Part shown: positions 11,052 to 44,889 of the stretch, piece by piece
How positions within the stretch are numbered: the first letter of the stretch is position 1
Layout of the letters: every line of letters begins with the position of its first letter
Origin: Escherichia phage RuthEpting_Bas85
DNA: 44,889 bases
Direction: 5' to 3' (one strand)
Sequence record: PQ850624.1
Position numbers and translations under genes: made by a program
Notes under the pieces: model-generated
Database searches by the model: none
What the model saw: the letters and a program-made list of their open reading frames with translations, nothing else
Told to the model about the DNA's origin: nothing

Positions 11052-11067
11052 ATTGGAGAATATTACA

Positions 11068-11430
11068 ATGGCTAAAGCACCACTCTTCACACTTGACCCT
11101 AAGCCGACCTTTAAGCTGCCGATTGAGATCCCGCGCCCTGGTGAGAACGAGCCGGGCAAGATGACCTTTACCGTCCGCCACCGCCCGATCGACGAGTTTT
11201 CGCAGACCATGCAGGACACCGAGCGCAAGCTGTCGGAATATGACGACAATGACCCGGACGGCTTTAACGTTATGGTTGAGGCCATCATGCACGTCGCTGA
11301 AGGCTGGAATCTGCCAGACCAATTTAACGCTGAGAACGTCCGCCGCCTGGTAGTCAACTACCCGCGCGCGTTCGGCGTGTTCCACACCTCGTACTATCTC
11401 GAATTGATGGGATTGCGTGAAAAAAACTAA
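11068..11430 (+). CDS. tail assembly chaperone (gpG-like)
   Basis: Start at ATG 11068 (RBS GGAGAA); 120 aa; ends in slippery run GAA-AAA-AAC-TAA. Confidence 0.8.
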   Translation: MAKAPLFTLDPKPTFKLPIEIPRPGENEPGKMTFTVRHRPIDEFSQTMQDTERKLSEYDDNDPDGFNVMVEAIMHVAEGWNLPDQFNAENVRRLVVNYPRAFGVFHTSYYLELMGLREKN

Positions 11431-11744
11431 TTGAGGCGGCGCGACGCTTTTATGGCCCGCCGCCACCCTCCGAAGATGTAGCCGCAAGTTTATGGGGCGC
11501 GGCCCCCGAAGATGTTTGTCCGTCTGTTGCGCTATGGCCCGACAACGCGAAGATAGTCGCAGTCTTCACAGATTGCTCTACGCAATGGCGCACCGGATTC
11601 GGTGGGGCATACGGCATCGACTACGGCGTGCTGGAATGGCTATTTAAGATGCACGGCATCGAAAACGAGCAACGTGCATTTAAAGATATCAAGCTAATGG
11701 AGCGAATCGCGCTTGATGAAATGGCGCAACAAAACCCCGCATAA
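11068..11744 (+). CDS. tail assembly chaperone GT fusion via programmed -1 frameshift
   Basis: The -1 frame is open from the slippery heptamer A-AAA-AAC (11421-11427) to TAA at 11742-11744 and encodes a gpT-like tail (GGAYGIDYGVLEWLFKMHGIENEQRAF). Confidence 0.6.
11421..11427 (+). other. -1 ribosomal frameshift slippery site (A AAA AAC)
   Basis: Heptamer of form X-XXY-YYZ at the end of the G-like ORF; downstream -1 frame open for ~105 codons. Confidence 0.55.
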
Positions 11745-11748
11745 TGAA

Positions 11749-12018
11749 GCGGGACGGATCGGGACGTCCCGCTTTGTCCCGTTTTGTCCCGCCACCTGCA
11801 AAACTGCATACCTACTCACTTTCATTGCATAAACTAAAAGCGGGACGAGCGGGACGTCCCGATCCGTCCCGCCCCCTAAATGTGCATACCTATTCAGATT
11901 TCGTGCATAAAATAAGCGGGACAGAAAGCGGGACAAACATGGGGCGGGACAAAGCGGGACAGCACCCCGTCCCCGTCAGTGCTGCCGCGGGTTTTAGCCG
12001 ATCGGGACAAGCGGGACA
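11749..12018. repeat. iteron array A (GCGGGACA / TGTCCCGC, both orientations)
   Basis: At least 5 exact GCGGGACA copies (11916, 11928, 11944, 11954, 12011) plus GGGAC-core variants; two identical 12-bp palindromes CGGGACGTCCCG (11760-11771, 11850-11861); two tandem ~80-bp units carrying TGCATA...GCATAAA. Confidence 0.8.
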
Positions 12019-12023
12019 AACCC

Positions 12024-12072
12024 CAGTCTTTCAGACTAGACGGGGGTCAATGGCCCCCCTCGTCTGAGACTG
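12024..12072 (+). other. long imperfect hairpin A (conserved copy at 39750-39799)
   Basis: CAGTCTTTCAGACTAGACGGGGG-tcaatg-GCCCCCCTCGTCTGAGACTG; arms identical in the second copy, loop differs. Confidence 0.6.
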
Positions 12073-12140
12073 AATAAGGTTTGTTTGAAATTCGCTGATA
12101 CAATGTCAATCGGCAACTGCATAAAAAAGGGGACTGCATA

Positions 12141-14786
12141 ATGGCAGATCAAGCAGCAGGCATCACGCTAAAGGCGGATGTTGCACAAATCAGAACGGCG
12201 AATACGGTGCTGGACTCATTCGCGCAGAAGTCCGAGAACACCGAAAACAAGGTTAAGAAATTAAACGACACACTCGGCAACACGAAAAAGGTGACGGGTG
12301 ACGCCGCGGGCGGAATGGGGAAGCTGGCAACTGAATCGCAGCGCGCCGCAGATGGCATGACGAAGCAGGAGCGACTTGCCAACCGCTTAGGCATGTCGAC
12401 TAAAAACCTGGGCTTTGCCTCACGTAACGCCGCATTTCAGTTACAGGATATTGCGGTCACGCTAGAGATGGGTATGCCGGTGCACCGCGTCATGATTCAG
12501 CAGTTACCGCAGTTAACCGGGGCATTCGGTGGGCTGGGTAATACGCTGCGTTATGTTGCTGGCTTTCTCGGTCCGGTAGGGATCGGCCTTGCTGCGGTAA
12601 CGGCGACGTTAGGCGTAGGCGTGGCGATTACGTCCCGTGCCGAAAACCAGGTAGCGGCGCTGAATAAGACGCTGGCGCTATCAGGTAATATCTCTGGCCT
12701 CACCGCTAACCAGATCCTGGTGCTGTCGGAGAACGCCGAACGCATGGGCGGGTCATTCAGCAAGACGCGTGACACAATTCAGGCACTGGCGGCAGCAGGT
12801 GTGAAAGCGGGTGCTGACTTCGGCGCACTGGCGAAAGTGGTGAACGACTTCGCGAAGGTGTCTAATCAGCCGATCGCTGACGTGGTGGAGTCCATCTCCA
12901 AATTGTCCAACGACCCGGTGGGCGGATTGCGCGCACTGGCGGACAAGTATCACGTCGTTACCGAGGCGCAGATCCAGCAGGTGCAGTCACTGGTTACGAC
13001 GGGTCGCGAAACTGAAGCGGTGGCGTTGGCTAACAAAACAGCCGCGGCGTCGTTCACCAGCATGACCAACGAGATCAAGTCCAACATGGGTACGCTTGAG
13101 CGATCGATGAACGTCGTCACATCGGCAGCTAAATCTATGTGGGATGCCATCCTGGATGTGGGCCGCGCGCAGTCCTCGAATGAGTCCGAGATGAAAGCGC
13201 GTGAGTCCTTGCAGCGCATGACAACGGCTTACTATGCCGAGATGAAAGCGGTAAACGCTGCCGGTGGGGTAATGACCGAGGCGCAGAAAGCACGAATTAA
13301 CATGCTTTATAGCGAACTGGTCGCCCAGGAGAAGGTCGTAGCGTCACTCACCCTGCGCAACCGTGCTGAGCGCGACAACGCCAGCGCCGCGGACAAATCA
13401 GCGAAGGCGAACGAGGAGGCCAACCGCACCGCCCGCGACCGCGCCGCGTTCGAGAAGGAATTTGCCACCAACGCGCAGAAGCGCGCCGACGAGATCGCCC
13501 GCCTCAATTTGCTGAATAAGCGCGGTGTGATTAACGAGAAAGAACTAGCCGAGGCGGTGAAGCAGGTCAACGAGCGCTACAAAGACCCCGCACCGAAGAA
13601 GGCGGCGGCTATTCGCGTGGATGCCGGTGTCAAAATGCTGGAGGTCGCACGGAGCGAACTGGCACAGCTTAAGGAGTCCGGCAAGCAGATCGAGGCCAAT
13701 GCAACAACGCAGACCCGCACGCAGCGCGCACAGGCCGCGTTGAATAAGCTGGTGGCGGATAATGAGCAGATGGTCGCCGCAAGCATGGAGCGCACTCTAA
13801 CGGCAGCAGAAAAGCAGCAAATGGCGGAGTTCGAGGCGGTTAAAGCGGTACGCGAGCAGATCGTCGAAGAAGCCAAATTGCTGGACGCGAAAGAGAAGCA
13901 GATCAAGGCACACGCCCAGGTCGAGGCATTCATCAAGAACCAGAACGCTGAGCTAAGGGCCACCGCTGCGGGCTATGCGCTTTCCACTCGCGAAGCGGCT
14001 AACCTGCGCGAAGAATTACAGCTAATTGACCGCCTTCAGCGTGTCGGCGCTAACGATACTGATATTGACAACGCGGTGTCTAAGCTGCGCGAAGTGCAGG
14101 AAGCACAGACCGGTGCTAACGCCTCGTTGTGGGATGGCTTCAGCCGCGGGCTTAAGGATAGCGTGGATGAAATGGGTAACGGCTACACGCAGATGACGTC
14201 ACTCACAAAATTCACGTTCGGCGCTATGCAGGACACGATGAACAAGTTTTTCGAGACGGGCAAGCTGAGCGCGAAGGATATGGTTAAGTCCATCCTGAGC
14301 GAATTAATCAAGCTGGCTACCTCGCAGGCGTTCAAATCCATCGTTAGCGCTTTCGGCGGTGACGGCGGCAAAAACGGATTGTTCGGCGCTATCTTCTCGG
14401 GCCTCACTAAGAACGCAGACGGCGGAGCGTACGCAGGAGGCAATCTAGCGGCCTATTCCGGGCAAGTGGTAAGCCAGCCTACCTTTTTCAGCTATGGCGT
14501 CCAGGAGTTCGCGAAGGGCGCAGGATTGATGGGTGAGGCTGGACCCGAGGCAATCATGCCACTGAAGCGCGGGCCGGATGGGAAACTGGGCGTTGCCGCT
14601 GCCGGTGTTGGTGGGGGTGGGATGATTGTAACGACCAACGTGAACATGGGGACCGGTAAAACGGACACCAGTGTGAGCGGACCGGACCCACGCACCGCGC
14701 AGGCGTTCGGCAAGCAAATCACCGAGTCGGTCAAGGCTGAGATCGTGAAAGCGACGAAACCGGGTGGAGTACTTTACAAACGATGA
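12141..14786 (+). CDS. tail tape measure protein
   Basis: 881 aa, long alpha-helical Ala/Gln/Glu-rich protein with hydrophobic segments and Gly-rich C-terminus; follows the G/GT chaperone. Confidence 0.9.
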   Translation: MADQAAGITLKADVAQIRTANTVLDSFAQKSENTENKVKKLNDTLGNTKKVTGDAAGGMGKLATESQRAADGMTKQERLANRLGMSTKNLGFASRNAAFQLQDIAVTLEMGMPVHRVMIQQLPQLTGAFGGLGNTLRYVAGFLGPVGIGLAAVTATLGVGVAITSRAENQVAALNKTLALSGNISGLTANQILVLSENAERMGGSFSKTRDTIQALAAAGVKAGADFGALAKVVNDFAKVSNQPIADVVESISKLSNDPVGGLRALADKYHVVTEAQIQQVQSLVTTGRETEAVALANKTAAASFTSMTNEIKSNMGTLERSMNVVTSAAKSMWDAILDVGRAQSSNESEMKARESLQRMTTAYYAEMKAVNAAGGVMTEAQKARINMLYSELVAQEKVVASLTLRNRAERDNASAADKSAKANEEANRTARDRAAFEKEFATNAQKRADEIARLNLLNKRGVINEKELAEAVKQVNERYKDPAPKKAAAIRVDAGVKMLEVARSELAQLKESGKQIEANATTQTRTQRAQAALNKLVADNEQMVAASMERTLTAAEKQQMAEFEAVKAVREQIVEEAKLLDAKEKQIKAHAQVEAFIKNQNAELRATAAGYALSTREAANLREELQLIDRLQRVGANDTDIDNAVSKLREVQEAQTGANASLWDGFSRGLKDSVDEMGNGYTQMTSLTKFTFGAMQDTMNKFFETGKLSAKDMVKSILSELIKLATSQAFKSIVSAFGGDGGKNGLFGAIFSGLTKNADGGAYAGGNLAAYSGQVVSQPTFFSYGVQEFAKGAGLMGEAGPEAIMPLKRGPDGKLGVAAAGVGGGGMIVTTNVNMGTGKTDTSVSGPDPRTAQAFGKQITESVKAEIVKATKPGGVLYKR

Positions 14787-14792
14787 TAAAAT

Positions 14793-36930: not shown

Positions 36931-37260
36931 ATGCATATCCACGACGCTATCGAAATGTTAACTACGGCTGTTAGTGGCGAGACAAGCCGGTCCTGGGCTT
37001 ATACCGATGCCGTTGGCGCGGCGTTATTTGAGATCGAACGCCTGCGCAGTGCCGAAAAAGAATTGCGCGCCAAGCTGGAATTACTCAACGGTACGGCAGC
37101 AAGCAAGTTGCAAAAGCACAATGAAGAAATGGAAGAATACAAAAAGCAGGTTATCCGTTTGCGCGACGAGGGCAAGTCCTGGGCGATGATTGCCGAGTTG
37201 ACCGGAATTAATCAAAGCACCGTGCGCTCCTGGGTACGCAATAATAAAACTTCTAAGTAA
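36931..37260 (+). CDS. HTH-containing regulatory protein (putative)
   Basis: 109 aa; C-terminal HTH-like segment KSWAMIAELTGINQSTVRSWVRN; first gene of the rightward operon. Confidence 0.55.
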   Translation: MHIHDAIEMLTTAVSGETSRSWAYTDAVGAALFEIERLRSAEKELRAKLELLNGTAASKLQKHNEEMEEYKKQVIRLRDEGKSWAMIAELTGINQSTVRSWVRNNKTSK

Positions 37261-37270
37261 GGCATCGGCA

Positions 37271-39535
37271 ATGAGCTTAATTAAATTCGCAGTAACAAGA
37301 CCCGCTAAAAAAGGCGAAAAAGCCAGGGCGGAAAACTTCGAGATGACCACTGATGAATTTTTCGAATTTATCAATGATGCAAAAGAAATCTCCTCGGTGC
37401 ACATCAACAAGACTGAAGATAAAGCCGAGTATGCGCGCCGCAAGCGTAAGGCCGATGGCATCGTGGCCTATACCAATGATGGGTTACGCCGCAAGACCAG
37501 TGCGGTCGACCGCTCGATCCTGTTCTTCGATATTGACCGCACCGACACCCGCACATTACGCCGCTGCCGTAAAGCGTTCACCGACGCTGGTCTGGAGCAT
37601 GTATTCCACACCACGACCGGCGACCGTCACCCACTGAAAGGCGGCACACGTTGTGCCCGTTTCCTGGTGCTCACTGACAAGCCTGTACCGGCTGAAGACC
37701 TGGGCCGCGTCCAGTATGCGCTATTAGACCAACTGGGCCTGTCAGATGTGGACTTCGACGACTGCACGAAAGACACCAACCGCCTTATGTACCTGCCTCA
37801 CCAGCAGTCAGTCATTAAGTGCCACTACGGCAAGCGCGCCCGTGTCCGTCGTCTGCTTCGCCTGGCTGACAAGCTGGGAGTTGAGAAAGAGGAAGTGCGC
37901 CGCGAACTGACCCAGGGCGACGATGGCGTGGCGGACGGGATTCTGGATTGGTGCTTCCAGGCTGGCTTTGAGCCGCTGTCATCCGGTCGCGGTTATGAAG
38001 TGCCGTGCCCGAACGAGCACCTACACAGTGGTGAAGGGTCGACGGCTATCATGGTTAAGGATGGAGAGATCCGTTTCAAGTGTATGCACACCGGTAACGA
38101 GTGCTGTTCCGAACTGAACAAACACCAGCACCTGGCGCTGCGTCTGATCGGCATTCCGGACCACCTGAACGTCGAACCACACAATATGTCACGCAAGCAA
38201 ATCGCCGCCATCCTTCCGGGACTGGACGACGAGGAAGTGGAATCGTGCTATGAGCATATTGTTGATGCGGTCGGAGACGGCGACGAGTACGGCGAATGCA
38301 CCGACGCTGACCTGGACAACGAGCCGGTCGCACTATTCAGTAAGCACGACCCGATCATCGAAGGCCTGGTCAACTTCAAATCGACCTGGTATATGGCTGG
38401 TGAGTCGAACATTGGTAAGTCGTTCTACGTGCTGGGCCAGATGGGTGCTGTTGCCGCAGGTATTCCGTTCGGCGGTGCGAAGGTTGTCCAGTCGCATTGC
38501 TTCTATTTCGATGCGGAAGGCGGCGAAGCCTCAAACCAGCGTAAGGAAGCATTGCAGATTAAATATGAGCACGACCTCGACAAGCTGCACATTATCGATC
38601 TGCAATCACGCGGCTGGGATATCACCAGCAAGTCCGGCTTGCGCGAAGTTATCAGCTTTATCAACCGCACCGCTAACGGGGAGCCGGTTGGCCTGGTGGC
38701 CTTCGACTCACTAAACCAGACTGTAGCGCTGCGGTCCGCTGATGCCAAACCGTTCGACGAGAACAACGCAAGCGATATGGGTGAAGTGGTCAAAGCGCTG
38801 AAGTCCATTGCGGAAAATACAGGCGGCAGTGCGGGCGTCATCCATCACCCGGCTAAGGGCGCAAACGGCAGCAGATCGCCACGCGGGTCCGGCGCGCTTC
38901 ATGGTGCTGTTGATTCTGCGTTCTTCCTGGAACAGCCGGACGATAATCAGCCAGGCCAACTCAACCTGTATCACGAAAAATCCCGTAACGGCATCAAGCA
39001 AGCGCCGCGTGGCTTCGTCCTGCTCAAGTGCAAAGTTAAGGTGGATCTCCGTAAGTCTGATGCGTTCGAAGCCCACCAGTCCACCAGCACCGGGCCAGAC
39101 TTTGGTGATGTTGTTGCCGGTTGGGACGTCAAGCCGATCGCATCCACGCCGCGCGACGAGACTCTCTACCTCGTACCGGTCGCCCTGGCACCGTTCGCTA
39201 TAGAACAGGCGAAGGCAGCAGGCAAGGCAGCAGTTAAGGAAGAGAACACCGCCGGACCGCGCAACGAAAAAGAGAAGGTGCTTTATGCGGCACTGGAAAA
39301 ACTGATGGAAGATAACCCGGACCATACTGGATTCAGTAAATCGGCAATCGTCCGCCAGGCTGGACTTGCGAAAGGTGGCACATCGACGAAGGCAATCGAC
39401 GATATGGTGGAGCGCGGCGTGCTCGGATTTTATACAGATCCACACACCGGGGCCATCTATGGGTCGTCGAATCTGGTCATAAAATCGGATATACCCATCA
39501 CGCTTTCAGCGACCGATGATGACCTGAAAGATTAA
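37271..39535 (+). CDS. bifunctional primase-polymerase / helicase
   Basis: 754 aa; N-terminal AEP-primase-like motifs (ILFFDIDRTD, TTGDRHPLKGG), Cys/His zinc-binding segment, C-terminal RecA/DnaB-like ATPase (MAGESNIGKSF Walker A, LVAFDSLNQ Walker B). Confidence 0.8.
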   Translation: MSLIKFAVTRPAKKGEKARAENFEMTTDEFFEFINDAKEISSVHINKTEDKAEYARRKRKADGIVAYTNDGLRRKTSAVDRSILFFDIDRTDTRTLRRCRKAFTDAGLEHVFHTTTGDRHPLKGGTRCARFLVLTDKPVPAEDLGRVQYALLDQLGLSDVDFDDCTKDTNRLMYLPHQQSVIKCHYGKRARVRRLLRLADKLGVEKEEVRRELTQGDDGVADGILDWCFQAGFEPLSSGRGYEVPCPNEHLHSGEGSTAIMVKDGEIRFKCMHTGNECCSELNKHQHLALRLIGIPDHLNVEPHNMSRKQIAAILPGLDDEEVESCYEHIVDAVGDGDEYGECTDADLDNEPVALFSKHDPIIEGLVNFKSTWYMAGESNIGKSFYVLGQMGAVAAGIPFGGAKVVQSHCFYFDAEGGEASNQRKEALQIKYEHDLDKLHIIDLQSRGWDITSKSGLREVISFINRTANGEPVGLVAFDSLNQTVALRSADAKPFDENNASDMGEVVKALKSIAENTGGSAGVIHHPAKGANGSRSPRGSGALHGAVDSAFFLEQPDDNQPGQLNLYHEKSRNGIKQAPRGFVLLKCKVKVDLRKSDAFEAHQSTSTGPDFGDVVAGWDVKPIASTPRDETLYLVPVALAPFAIEQAKAAGKAAVKEENTAGPRNEKEKVLYAALEKLMEDNPDHTGFSKSAIVRQAGLAKGGTSTKAIDDMVERGVLGFYTDPHTGAIYGSSNLVIKSDIPITLSATDDDLKD

Positions 39536-39626
39536 ATTTTGCGCGCATTGGTTGCCAAATTGAGTGTTTTTAGCTGGTCGCATTGGTTGCCGTGTAGTGT
39601 AAATATAGTGAATAGTTATGCAGTTT

Positions 39627-39745
39627 TATTGCATAAAATAAGCGGGACAAAAAGCGGGACAGACAGGGGGCGGGACAAAGCGGGACAGCACCCCTTGTCC
39701 CGCCCGGATGGCGCGGCTTTCAGAGGAGCGGGACAGGCGGGACAA
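39627..39745. repeat. iteron array B (second copy)
   Basis: TTGCATAAAAT followed by six exact GCGGGACA copies (39642, 39654, 39670, 39680, 39728, 39737) and one inverted TGTCCCGC; ~85% identical to 11895-12018. Confidence 0.8.
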
Positions 39746-39749
39746 ACCC

Positions 39750-39799
39750 CAGTCTTTCAGACTAGACGGGGGTCAGTCGGCCCCCCTCGTCTGAGACTG
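39750..39799 (+). other. long imperfect hairpin B
   Basis: CAGTCTTTCAGACTAGACGGGGG-tcagtcg-GCCCCCCTCGTCTGAGACTG; arms identical to hairpin A, loop one nt longer. Confidence 0.6.
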
Positions 39800-40017
39800 C
39801 ATAAAATCCGGGATTGCATAATGTACGGCAGCATGACGTGAATTGCGGTCGTCGACGAACTAGGCAACCAATGCGAGTTGTATTATGGGTGGTGAAAAAT
39901 GCAGTTTGCAGTTACAGCAGATAGCGATCAACTTTTTCATACGCATGATTAATATTGGTTGCATTCAGCCTGGCACCCTGCTAGATTGGTTGCACCCCAA
40001 CGAGAGGACCAAACAAA

Positions 40018-40188
40018 ATGAAATTTCCAGTAACCATCAAAGACGGTAAATCAACTATCACCTTCACAAGCAACGACCAGGGCACCTATGAAAGCGGGGC
40101 GACTTGCATGTCTACCCTGGACGATGTGATGATTCGTGTTAATTCCGGTAAAGCCTCGATTGTTGACGACAACACTAAGAAGGACTGA
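40018..40188 (+). CDS. small hypothetical protein (56 aa)
   Basis: ATG with RBS AGAGG; MKFPVTIKDGKSTITFTSNDQ...; below ORF-track size cut-off; first ORF after element B. Confidence 0.4.
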   Translation: MKFPVTIKDGKSTITFTSNDQGTYESGATCMSTLDDVMIRVNSGKASIVDDNTKKD

Positions 40189-44772: not shown

Positions 44773-44889
44773 CCCTCCCAGCCCGCCGATTTGGTGGGCT
44801 TTTTTGTGCCTGTTATAATCCCCCTTAGATGGCTGGGCCGTCTCCTATGTTGCCGATGGTCGGCGCATATGCATAAAAGGGCTTATATC

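Follow-up and report, generated by a model that had tools for sequence, protein, structure and literature searches.

Introduction

The alpha protein of phage P4 consists of a Toprim primase, a superfamily 3 helicase, and a C-terminal winged helix; its iterons are octamers (TGTTCACC), and it reportedly binds two loci, ori and crr, the second of which was found in experiments to be needed in cis. The present study deals with a non-coding element located between the tail assembly chaperone (GT) and tape measure genes of Escherichia phage RuthEpting_Bas85 (positions 11745–12140; referred to as region A), which resembles crr in several respects. The DNA analyzed (sequence record PQ850624.1; 44,889 bp in full; referred to as the window) is a complete, circularly permuted genome of the genus Dhillonvirus (HK578-like siphophages of Escherichia coli). 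Region A was most likely a second binding site for the phage helicase-primase rather than junk, a gene, or an RNA, and, as the paralogue of a module that follows the helicase-primase gene (in region B), it probably provides this protein with either a second origin or an auxiliary site for replication in cis.

Related arrangements have been described in other replicons. G38P of Bacillus phage SPP1 has a similar affinity for oriL, a part of the gene encoding it, and for oriR, which is far away (PMC5737612). Rep of the pRN1 type is a fusion of an AEP primase, a helicase, and a winged helix, and a stem-loop origin conserved at the level of structure and not of sequence is found directly 3' of its gene (PMC4234260). 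oriV of RSF1010 combines iterons, an AT-rich segment, and the ssiA/ssiB hairpins of ~40 nt where primase starts (PMC8567376). The kind of element described here, an iteron origin with a distal second site, is known; its particular form is new, in that a RepA-like helicase-primase with a swappable winged-helix/iteron cassette is combined with a compound hairpin, and the gap separating GT from the tape measure gene holds a conserved copy. Dhillonviruses are common and easily grown coliphages, several of which, including Haito_Bas83, belong to the BASEL collection, and no description of a Dhillonvirus replication origin was found in the searchable literature.

Structure of region A

Region A (+ strand) was 396 bp in length, from the stop codon of the T frame (11742–11744) to the ATG codon of the tape measure gene (12141), and was made up of three iteron blocks with AT-rich spacers between them, followed by a hairpin and a promoter-like element. 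A previous reading of the letters of this DNA by a model (the original prediction) had proposed a non-coding gap at this position with at least five exact copies of an 8-mer and GGGAC cores in both orientations, and these features were found: six copies of GCGGGACA within 11785–12018, and 15 CGGGAC cores within 11750–12017 (10 on the + and 5 on the − strand). In the whole window, GCGGGACA occurred 16 times against an expectation of 2.05, and none of 100 shuffled sequences reached this number. The clustering was far beyond chance, as had been claimed, and is of the type seen in iteron-type origins.

Iteron block 1 (11747–11796; GC content of 0.65) contained CGGGAC at 11750(+), 11760(+), 11766(−), 11776(−), and 11786(−), and block 2 (11838–11875) at 11841(+), 11850(+), 11856(−), and 11866(−). 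The 12-bp palindrome CGGGACGTCCCG was present once in each (11760–11771 and 11850–11861), identical in both as predicted; each block formed a four-iteron palindrome, and a perfect 25-nt inverted repeat linked the two (11749–11773 with 11848–11872). Block 3 (11914–12023, +) consisted of direct CGGGACA iterons at 11917, 11929, 11945, 11955, 12003, and 12012, together with a degenerate inverted copy, and was the paralogue of 39642–39749 in region B. Spacer 1 (11797–11837, +; GC of 0.34) carried TGCATAC and TGCATAA (11826–11832) and is a candidate DNA-unwinding element; spacer 2 (11876–11913, +; GC of 0.32), with TGCATAC...TGCATAAAATAA, was homologous to 39606–39641 upstream of the region B iterons. 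Both spacers ended in TGCATAA. Iteron blocks with a GC content of 0.65–0.76 thus alternated with spacers of 0.32–0.34 in region A (0.19 in region B), corresponding to the AT-rich neighbor of an origin. The AT-rich segments 11800–11837 and 11878–11915 recurred with a period of ~78 bp and were 76% identical, and the iteron blocks repeated at 80–91 bp; the two tandem units of ~80 bp in the original prediction were hence confirmed for the AT-rich part, while the iteron blocks numbered three rather than two.

Downstream of the iterons, a compound hairpin of 49 nt (CAGTCTTTCAGACTAGACGGGGG...CCCCCCTCGTCTGAGACTG, ~20 bp; 12024–12072, +) was found where a long hairpin had been expected. When folded as single-stranded DNA (ssDNA), it had a free energy of −12.7 kcal/mol (z = −4.3 relative to shuffled sequences). 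Its stems were nearly invariant in the copies of regions A and B, and the loop varied. This was followed by an extended −10-like element, TGATACAAT (12096–12104, +), 37 nt upstream of the tape measure ATG and invariant in 15 genomes, and by TGCATAAAA-N8-TGCATAATG (12118–12143, +), which overlapped the start codon of the tape measure gene.

The only open reading frame (ORF) across the region (11744–12067), regarded as an artefact in the original prediction, was not a gene, because, of the 14 other Dhillonvirus genomes in the alignment, 11 had TAACG, CAGTG, TAGTG, TAGCA, or TAATT in place of its ATG, and indels of 1 nt and 11 nt were present in the region. TTATGCA(N) as a DnaA box and TGCATAAAAT as a sigma-70 −10 element were each judged by eye, received inconsistent support across lineages, and were not adopted.

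Region B and its paralogy with region A

A second cluster of GCGGGACA (39642–39744), which had been missed previously, was the key to the interpretation of region A. It was located in the non-coding region after the helicase-primase gene (39536–40019, +; referred to as region B), within a module at 39606–39801 that was flanked by ATTGGTTGC motifs, with a sigma-70-like promoter at 39954–39993. The iteron part (39642–39749) contained seven copies of GCGGGACA, six on the + strand and one inverted (39696–39703); it was preceded by a 42-bp stretch with a GC content of 0.19 (39600–39641) and followed by a hairpin (39750–39799, +; z of −3.2) paralogous to 12024–12072. A block of ~190 bp in region A (11886–12080) aligned with 39606–39800, and the mean column identity between 11880–12150 and 39600–39850 was 83%. 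The two regions were identical in TGCATAAAATAA, in six iterons (four direct ones and another two), and in the stems of the hairpin, and TGCATAAAA-N8-TGCATAATG also came after both hairpins (39798–39823 in region B). The module begins with an AT-rich segment containing TGCATAA repeats; CGGGACA iterons in direct and inverted orientation, a compound hairpin of ~50 nt, and a downstream promoter are its other three parts. We regard the module of region B as the ancestral copy and region A as the second, paralogous copy. An origin of this kind is expected beside the initiator gene; region B is located there, whereas region A is 17–28 kb from the helicase-primase gene, so that its counterparts are oriR, crr, and other distal sites.

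The same two loci are present in the record of a congeneric phage, SO-1 (GQ502199), as repeat_region features named "region A" and "region B"; the annotation mentions repeats of the direct, inverted, and palindromic kinds and a similarity between the two. In the searchable literature on Dhillonvirus, HK578, SO-1, eiAU, and YD-2008.s, we found no description of the arrays, and no analysis of the motif, binder, or distribution for the SO-1 regions; a text search of the literature for the iteron motif returned primer sequences only.

Region A was found in all of the 15 Dhillonvirus genomes aligned (404–427 bp, with 11–15 CGGGAC sites). Such genus-wide conservation, and a counterpart in Eiauvirus (see below), indicated that it is not a recent insertion, contrary to the wording of the original prediction, which had proposed this alignment as a check. 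Among 35 distinct copies of the module from Dhillonvirus genomes (17 of the A type and 18 of the B type), the iterons and hairpin stems were nearly invariant and TGCATAAA was invariant, while the spacers and hairpin loop varied. By this pattern, both copies are under purifying selection. Diagnostic spacer sequences separated the A copies from the B copies, indicating an old duplication that preceded the Dhillonvirus radiation.

As a side observation, the motif ACGGCAGCA(A/T) was conserved just downstream of the module (39830–39845 in the window, with equivalents in loci L144 and L155–L169) and was kept across lineages with different iterons.

Association of the module with a RepA-like helicase-primase

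IMG/VR was scanned for GCGGGACANNGCGGGACA, and at least 120 loci were obtained. A dense array was defined as at least six CGGGAC per 400 bp, of which there were 90 among the matches listed, and ORFs within 3.5 kb of these arrays were clustered for shared neighbors. Many of the listed contigs were unrelated to Dhillonvirus and very different in GC content. The only widely shared neighbor was an AAA_25 helicase-primase, found at 60 of the 90 loci (45 of them non-Dhillonvirus), and the array was always 3' of its gene, abutting or overlapping the end in nearly all cases. The array-linked proteins were all of the AAA_25 (RepA-like) type, while their primase part was either Prim-Pol or Toprim with a zinc ribbon, suggesting that the link with the array follows the helicase and the C-terminal part.

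When loci were instead retrieved by the helicase-primase protein, most of the relatives (37–49% protein identity) had the same module architecture directly past the stop codon of the gene: two AT-rich GAATAGTTATGCA repeats came first, then three or four iterons in direct and others in inverted orientation, and, past a short linker that was also conserved, another two iterons and the compound hairpin. The iterons were specific to each lineage (GGGGGAGA, CGGACAA, GGGATAA, CCGACAR, GGGGATRA, and TGCGAGT), and one lineage with 68% helicase-primase identity was represented by IMGVR_UViG_3300045988_050407. No module was found after the helicase-primase gene at four of the protein-retrieved loci (L151, L152, L154, and L159). 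Hairpins of differing sequence still folded (10 sequences from six iteron lineages; ssDNA z values of −2.0 to −4.4) with a constant polarity, the G-run arm being 5' and the C-run arm 3'; a MAFFT alignment of the hairpins from 11 lineages was poor, and RNAalifold predicted only three pairs from it. A search among plasmids for a minimal replicon (gene plus array) gave partial matches in large replicons only, and a search of loci by the tape measure protein retrieved close Dhillonviruses only.

Some further arrays were noted. In Rhizobium phage 16-3 (NC_011103, 56250–56615; L196:3085–3450), a dense array of GCGTGACA in both orientations and then a terminal hairpin come after the p101 primase/helicase, and a metagenomic relative with 70% protein identity (L009) has GCGGGACA in place of GCGTGACA. 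In some high-GC phages of IMG/VR (L038, L046, and L086), CGGGAC arrays flank long (GC/GT)n tracts, in which purines and pyrimidines alternate, in place of an AT-rich segment; these tracts may be an alternative element that is easily unwound or forms Z-DNA.

Domain structure of the helicase-primase

The helicase-primase (37271–39535, +; 754 amino acids) consists of an N-terminal part with DxD and a Cys/His cluster, a RepA-like AAA_25 domain, and a predicted C-terminal winged helix, and is proposed to be the iteron-binding initiator. Pfam detected AAA_25 only, with no Toprim domain; the N-terminal part is a putative primase, probably of the AEP type. A search of the sequence against PDB gave no match. 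The AlphaFold2 model of the full protein had a pLDDT of 78.6, and Foldseek identified the helicase core as an RSF1010 RepA-type fold (1g8y; TM-score of 0.71 normalized to the target). The full-length model matched only at this RecA/RepA core, and the C-terminus was modeled separately.

Sequence divergence within the protein is greatest in the C-terminal part. In the separate model (pLDDT of 73), residues 663–740 (39257–39490, +) formed a helix-helix-helix-strand-strand unit, and the top PDB matches were mainly winged-helix proteins (MarR/PcaV, histone H1/H5, the winged helix of ORC2, and TubR), with probabilities of up to 0.98–1.0 but weak E-values (0.02 or more). These residues are, thus, predicted to form a winged helix, which we propose as the reader of the iterons.

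Co-variation of the iterons and winged helix

In phages with different iterons, residues 1–640 of the helicase-primase (referred to as the body) were up to 96–99% identical, while the winged helix was merely 43–52% identical. The body of L162 and L164 was 99% identical with 52% identity in the winged helix, and the corresponding values for L150 and L155 were 96% and 43%; the iterons differed in both pairs. On the other hand, L157 and L168, which have the same iterons, showed 78% identity in the body and 84% in the winged helix, and the identity of the winged helix among all pairs with the same iterons was 60–100%. The winged helix therefore tracked the iteron and not the rest of the protein, a correlative result that agrees with the matching specificity expected of an initiator and its origin. 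The contrasts in L162/L164 and L150/L155 suggested recombinational swapping of a cassette consisting of the winged helix and origin module, and the winged helix and downstream iterons appear to behave as one specificity cassette. Together with the paralogy to region B, this co-variation supported the option of an origin or cis-replication region bound by the primase-helicase, one of several put forward in the original prediction, in which a packaging site, a transcription-factor site, and a structured or antitermination RNA had also been considered.

Another candidate binder named there was the helix-turn-helix (HTH) protein encoded at 36931–37260. Relatives have a different, small Cro-like HTH in the same position upstream of the helicase-primase gene, and this was identical in L155 and L167, and also in L164 and L169, although the iterons differed within each pair. 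The HTH protein is accordingly disfavored, although the Dhillonvirus protein may still be a minor candidate, its homologues having been found only in CGGGACA (Dhillonvirus) lineages. It has 109 amino acids and is named "transposase" in the closest record, and its C-terminal HTH passed the Pfam cut-offs of HTH_23, Sigma70_r4_2, and HTH_28.

Second sites in other lineages

The next-closest tape measure protein was that of Edwardsiella phage eiAU-183 (44% identity in the relative eiMSLS). The gap between its GT and tape measure genes (NC_023555; L195:2624–3518 plus L194:1–221) was 1.1 kb in length and encoded gp54 on the reverse strand; GCAACCAA was present several times and the iteron TCGCCCCG three times, and a hairpin (GAGGAGACGGGGGTG...CACCCCTCGTCCTC) closely resembled that of Dhillonvirus. 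A 52-nt block of this module was 88% identical to the sequence after the eiAU helicase-primase gene. In the TGCGAGT lineage (phages of ~40 kb), a second module was located 9.4 kb downstream of the first (L146:21660–21930 and L149:21755–22020), between a 349-amino acid ORF and a spanin-like gene; no second cluster was found within the sequence available for the sister loci L144, L145, and L166. Among the CGGGAC matches listed, only three of the 69 non-Dhillonvirus loci had more than one cluster, all within 3.3 kb. The distal second array is thus recurrent, although not universal, and, where present, carries the phage's own iteron.

Comparison with known replication systems

One of the two closest analogues, together with SPP1, was satellite phage P4, in which one primase-helicase with a C-terminal winged helix has iterons at two loci several kilobases apart, and the tandem direct repeats of crr that hold iterons resemble the ~78-bp units of region A. 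As in crr, region A is a distant second locus with the same iterons (CGGGACA in both A and B) in tandem repeats. However, the helicase of the present phage is RepA-like (AAA_25) and no Toprim domain was found, in contrast to the P4 alpha-type binder, and the iterons are GCGGGACA instead of TGTTCACC. Region A is, therefore, an analogue of crr and not a member of the same class.

SPP1 likewise has two distant clusters of initiator-binding repeats, each by an AT-rich unwinding element and one of them at the initiator gene. G38P is a small organizer without helicase or primase, whereas the candidate binder of the present phage is a fusion of primase, helicase, and winged helix; oriL is inside gene 38, whereas region B comes after the helicase-primase gene; and the AB boxes are unrelated in sequence to CGGGACA. 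The ORF904 type of pRN1 shares with region B an origin directly downstream of a primase-helicase-winged-helix gene, a structurally conserved stem-loop, and a small HTH/repressor gene upstream in the same operon. It differs in that the replicon is an archaeal plasmid, the helicase belongs to superfamily 3, and the origin is one stem-loop of 100 nt that has neither an iteron array nor a second copy. In RSF1010, the parts of oriV resemble those of the module, and RepA has the fold of the helicase core of the phage protein; however, RepC binds the iterons, RepA is the helicase, and RepB' is the primase, three separate proteins acting at a single origin, while the phage protein appears to be fused and the module is duplicated.

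Possible role of region A in replication

In the mechanism that we propose, the C-terminal winged helix of the helicase-primase would read the CGGGACA iterons, and several monomers would assemble (oligomerize) on the array. The adjacent AT-rich DNA would melt and the hairpin region would be extruded. Loading or priming may take place on the hairpin, as on ssiA and ssiB in oriV of RSF1010 and on the stem-loop 3' of the rep gene of pRN1; the RepA-like helicase ring would then load, and the primase domain would start synthesis. Region A would fire as a second origin, or would act as an auxiliary cis site for the same protein, perhaps bridged to region B.

Physical binding, origin firing, and looping are inferred in this mechanism, and several observations weigh against the assignment. 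The winged helix adjoins the module on the DNA, and recombination would co-transfer both without a functional link. The C-terminal domain shared by the unrelated phages with CGGGAC arrays looks different, its conserved helix being KRKxFxRA, and its comparison with the C-terminal domain of Dhillonvirus by hhalign gave a probability of 12%, at which homology is not demonstrable. GC skew followed gene orientation and gave no independent origin signal. Salmonella phage sp9 of Guernseyvirinae has one module only, beside the helicase-primase gene, indicating that the second site is not generally required. Both modules of the present phage are at operon boundaries near promoters, and a transcriptional role may coexist.

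A stronger version is possible, although doubtful: the winged helix and downstream iterons would be a swappable cassette that sets replicon identity, and Dhillonvirus and Eiauvirus would have an obligatory two-site origin, with regions A and B bridged by looping or handcuffing. If true, this would couple genome replication with late tail-gene transcription, or time one by the other, and lead to exclusion or incompatibility between co-infecting relatives.

The assignment of region A to the helicase-primase is testable in terms of an initiator (the helicase-primase), its reading head (residues 663–740), a site (CGGGACA), and two target loci. A broader rule is also suggested, by which the RepA-like helicase-primase genes of many phages precede related G-rich iteron arrays, with the C-terminal domain changing alongside; it would range from Rhizobium phage 16-3 to Salmonella phage sp9, and the closest cultured relatives of some of the array contigs are Roseobacter phages. 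Such a rule would aid the annotation of origins, the engineering of phage replicons, and the understanding of incompatibility between related phages.

Alternative explanations

Region A also looks like a transcription boundary, and a cassette combining a terminator after G/GT with a promoter that serves the tape measure gene and the more distal tail genes, in which the iterons would be operators of a read-through regulator that lowers tape measure expression relative to the tail tube, has to be weighed. Terminator-like signals, an RNA hairpin and then a T-rich tail after GT, were detected in block 1 (11744–11777 and 11760–11781); the palindrome at 11744–11781 gave a GC-rich hairpin with a T-run, and terminators are annotated by ARNOLD in the records of WFI, at the position of block 1 in region A, and CS16, in region B. 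Termination may accordingly occur after GT. Transcription of the tape measure gene and the distal tail genes probably starts from the invariant TGATACAAT; it had no good −35 element and was not flagged by a consensus promoter scan. Every module, including the second ones of eiAU and L146, was located between transcription units, upstream of a promoter. However, a boundary cassette does not explain why the iterons match the array adjacent to the helicase-primase gene, why they co-vary with the winged helix, or why arrays are found after helicase-primase genes in 45 of the listed non-Dhillonvirus contigs. In addition, the main hairpin (12024–12072) precedes AATAAGG and is without a T-run, and the small HTH regulators beside the helicase-primase gene in the relatives do not track the iterons. 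We consider this cassette unlikely as the main function, while a transcriptional role is compatible as a secondary one of the same DNA. A structured RNA, either an antiterminator of the put/nut type, a protein-sponge RNA with GGGA repeats, or a two-copy small RNA gene, is very unlikely. The direct iterons and both hairpins are all on the sense strand of the flanking genes, the conserved hairpin structure has its G-run arm 5' and C-run arm 3', and the two copies per genome are reminiscent of phage HK022, which has putL and putR. No Rfam family matched anywhere in the window at the gathering threshold, however, and at E values of up to 1, region A gave only sub-threshold matches to miRNA precursors, which are noise, and region B gave none. 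The iterons occur in both orientations, are palindromic in blocks 1 and 2, and are densely inverted in unrelated phages, as is typical of sites in double-stranded DNA; no sigma-70-type promoter was flagged directly upstream of them in the consensus scan, and their sequence tracks a DNA-binding domain.

The arrays may alternatively be recognized by terminase or mark genome ends, in the manner of cosB, cosQ, or pac, or else region A may be a non-functional duplicate or mobile miniature element copied from region B, a selfish or neutral repeat. Packaging was among the options of the original prediction and receives some support from the ends of database records: the two independent records of WFI and BMA1 are both opened between 39914 (last base) and 39915 (first base; CAGCAGATAGCG...), ~115 bp past the hairpin of region B, those of Pandora71 and Zar3M end within a few bases of 39914, and the RefSeq record of eiAU-183 is linearized inside the gap between the GT and tape measure genes. 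The junction 39914/39915 may be a physical terminus or pac start, or may reflect mere re-ordering to a reference, as record ends may simply be copied. Published packaging calls for the genus disagree, with headful for BF9 (PMC10059673) and cos for EE09 (PMC10673088). Moreover, region A is enclosed by genes of the tail operon at a distance of 11.7 kb from terS, and cutting by terminase there would be harmful; in many phage types the module adjoins the helicase-primase gene and not terS; a packaging function is hence highly improbable. An equally slight probability applies to the selfish or neutral repeat. The second copy does vary in position (between the GT and tape measure genes in Dhillonvirus and eiAU; between a head gene and the spanin gene in L146 and L149), and one relative is without it, but the iterons and stems remain nearly invariant while the spacers drift in all of the 15 genomes, with diagnostic positions specific to A, and the iterons in the eiAU gap follow the iteron of their own lineage. 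Neither terminal repeats nor target-site duplications were seen in a search that was not exhaustive.

Genomic setting and other observations

The gene map of the window was taken from the annotation of Bas83 (PQ850604). Escherichia phage Haito_Bas83 was the closest relative, with 99.3% identity in a 2-kb stretch around region A; this stretch matched 158 phage records, almost all of them Escherichia and Shigella Dhillonviruses with the addition of Sodalis phage SO-1, and at least 80% of it was covered in 146 of the 158. The genome has a GC content of ~54%. The late structural genes, terS (position 1) through the tail fiber gene (~24 kb), occupy the + strand, the genes for replication and nucleotide metabolism are on the − strand at 24–36 kb, and past 36 kb the + strand encodes the HTH protein, helicase-primase, small genes, and lysis genes, followed by terS. 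The upstream boundary of region A is formed by the tail assembly chaperone G and its T extension (11053–11744, +; G at 11053–11430; Pfam Phage_TAC_4), the counterparts of which are gp15/gp16 of SO-1 and a protein labeled DUF1799 in JLBYU37. The downstream boundary is the tape measure protein (12141–14786, +; 881 amino acids; Pfam TMP_2 and Tape_meas_lam_C). In PQ850604, ORFs for a "hypothetical protein" (Bas83_0020, 0021, and 0056) are auto-called over 11744–12067 and 39539–39841, and the G chaperone is named "tail length tape measure protein"; these ORF calls over both repeat regions and the label of G are probably annotation artefacts.

A consensus extended −10 element, TGTTATAAT (44811–44819), ~70 nt upstream of the start of terS, is a candidate promoter of the late operon, and a similar sequence, TGATAAAAT, was found at the end of the tape measure gene (14784–14792). 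ATTGGTTGC was a second, dispersed motif with 15 exact copies in the window (6152, 6166, 22274, 25305, 27209, 27226, 30167, 36729, 39547, 39582, 39864, 39954, 39985, 40695, and 43248); when one mismatch was allowed, there were 22 matches against 12.8 expected. The copies were almost all intergenic and often paired at a spacing of 11–35 bp, and the pair at 39954–39993 overlapped the −35 (TTGCAT) and −10 (TAGATT) elements of the sigma-70-like promoter of region B. The motif resembles an operator or promoter sequence belonging to a phage regulator, and its counterparts in relatives are GCAACCAAC (eiAU) and TGTTGGCTG (FSL SP-031 type).

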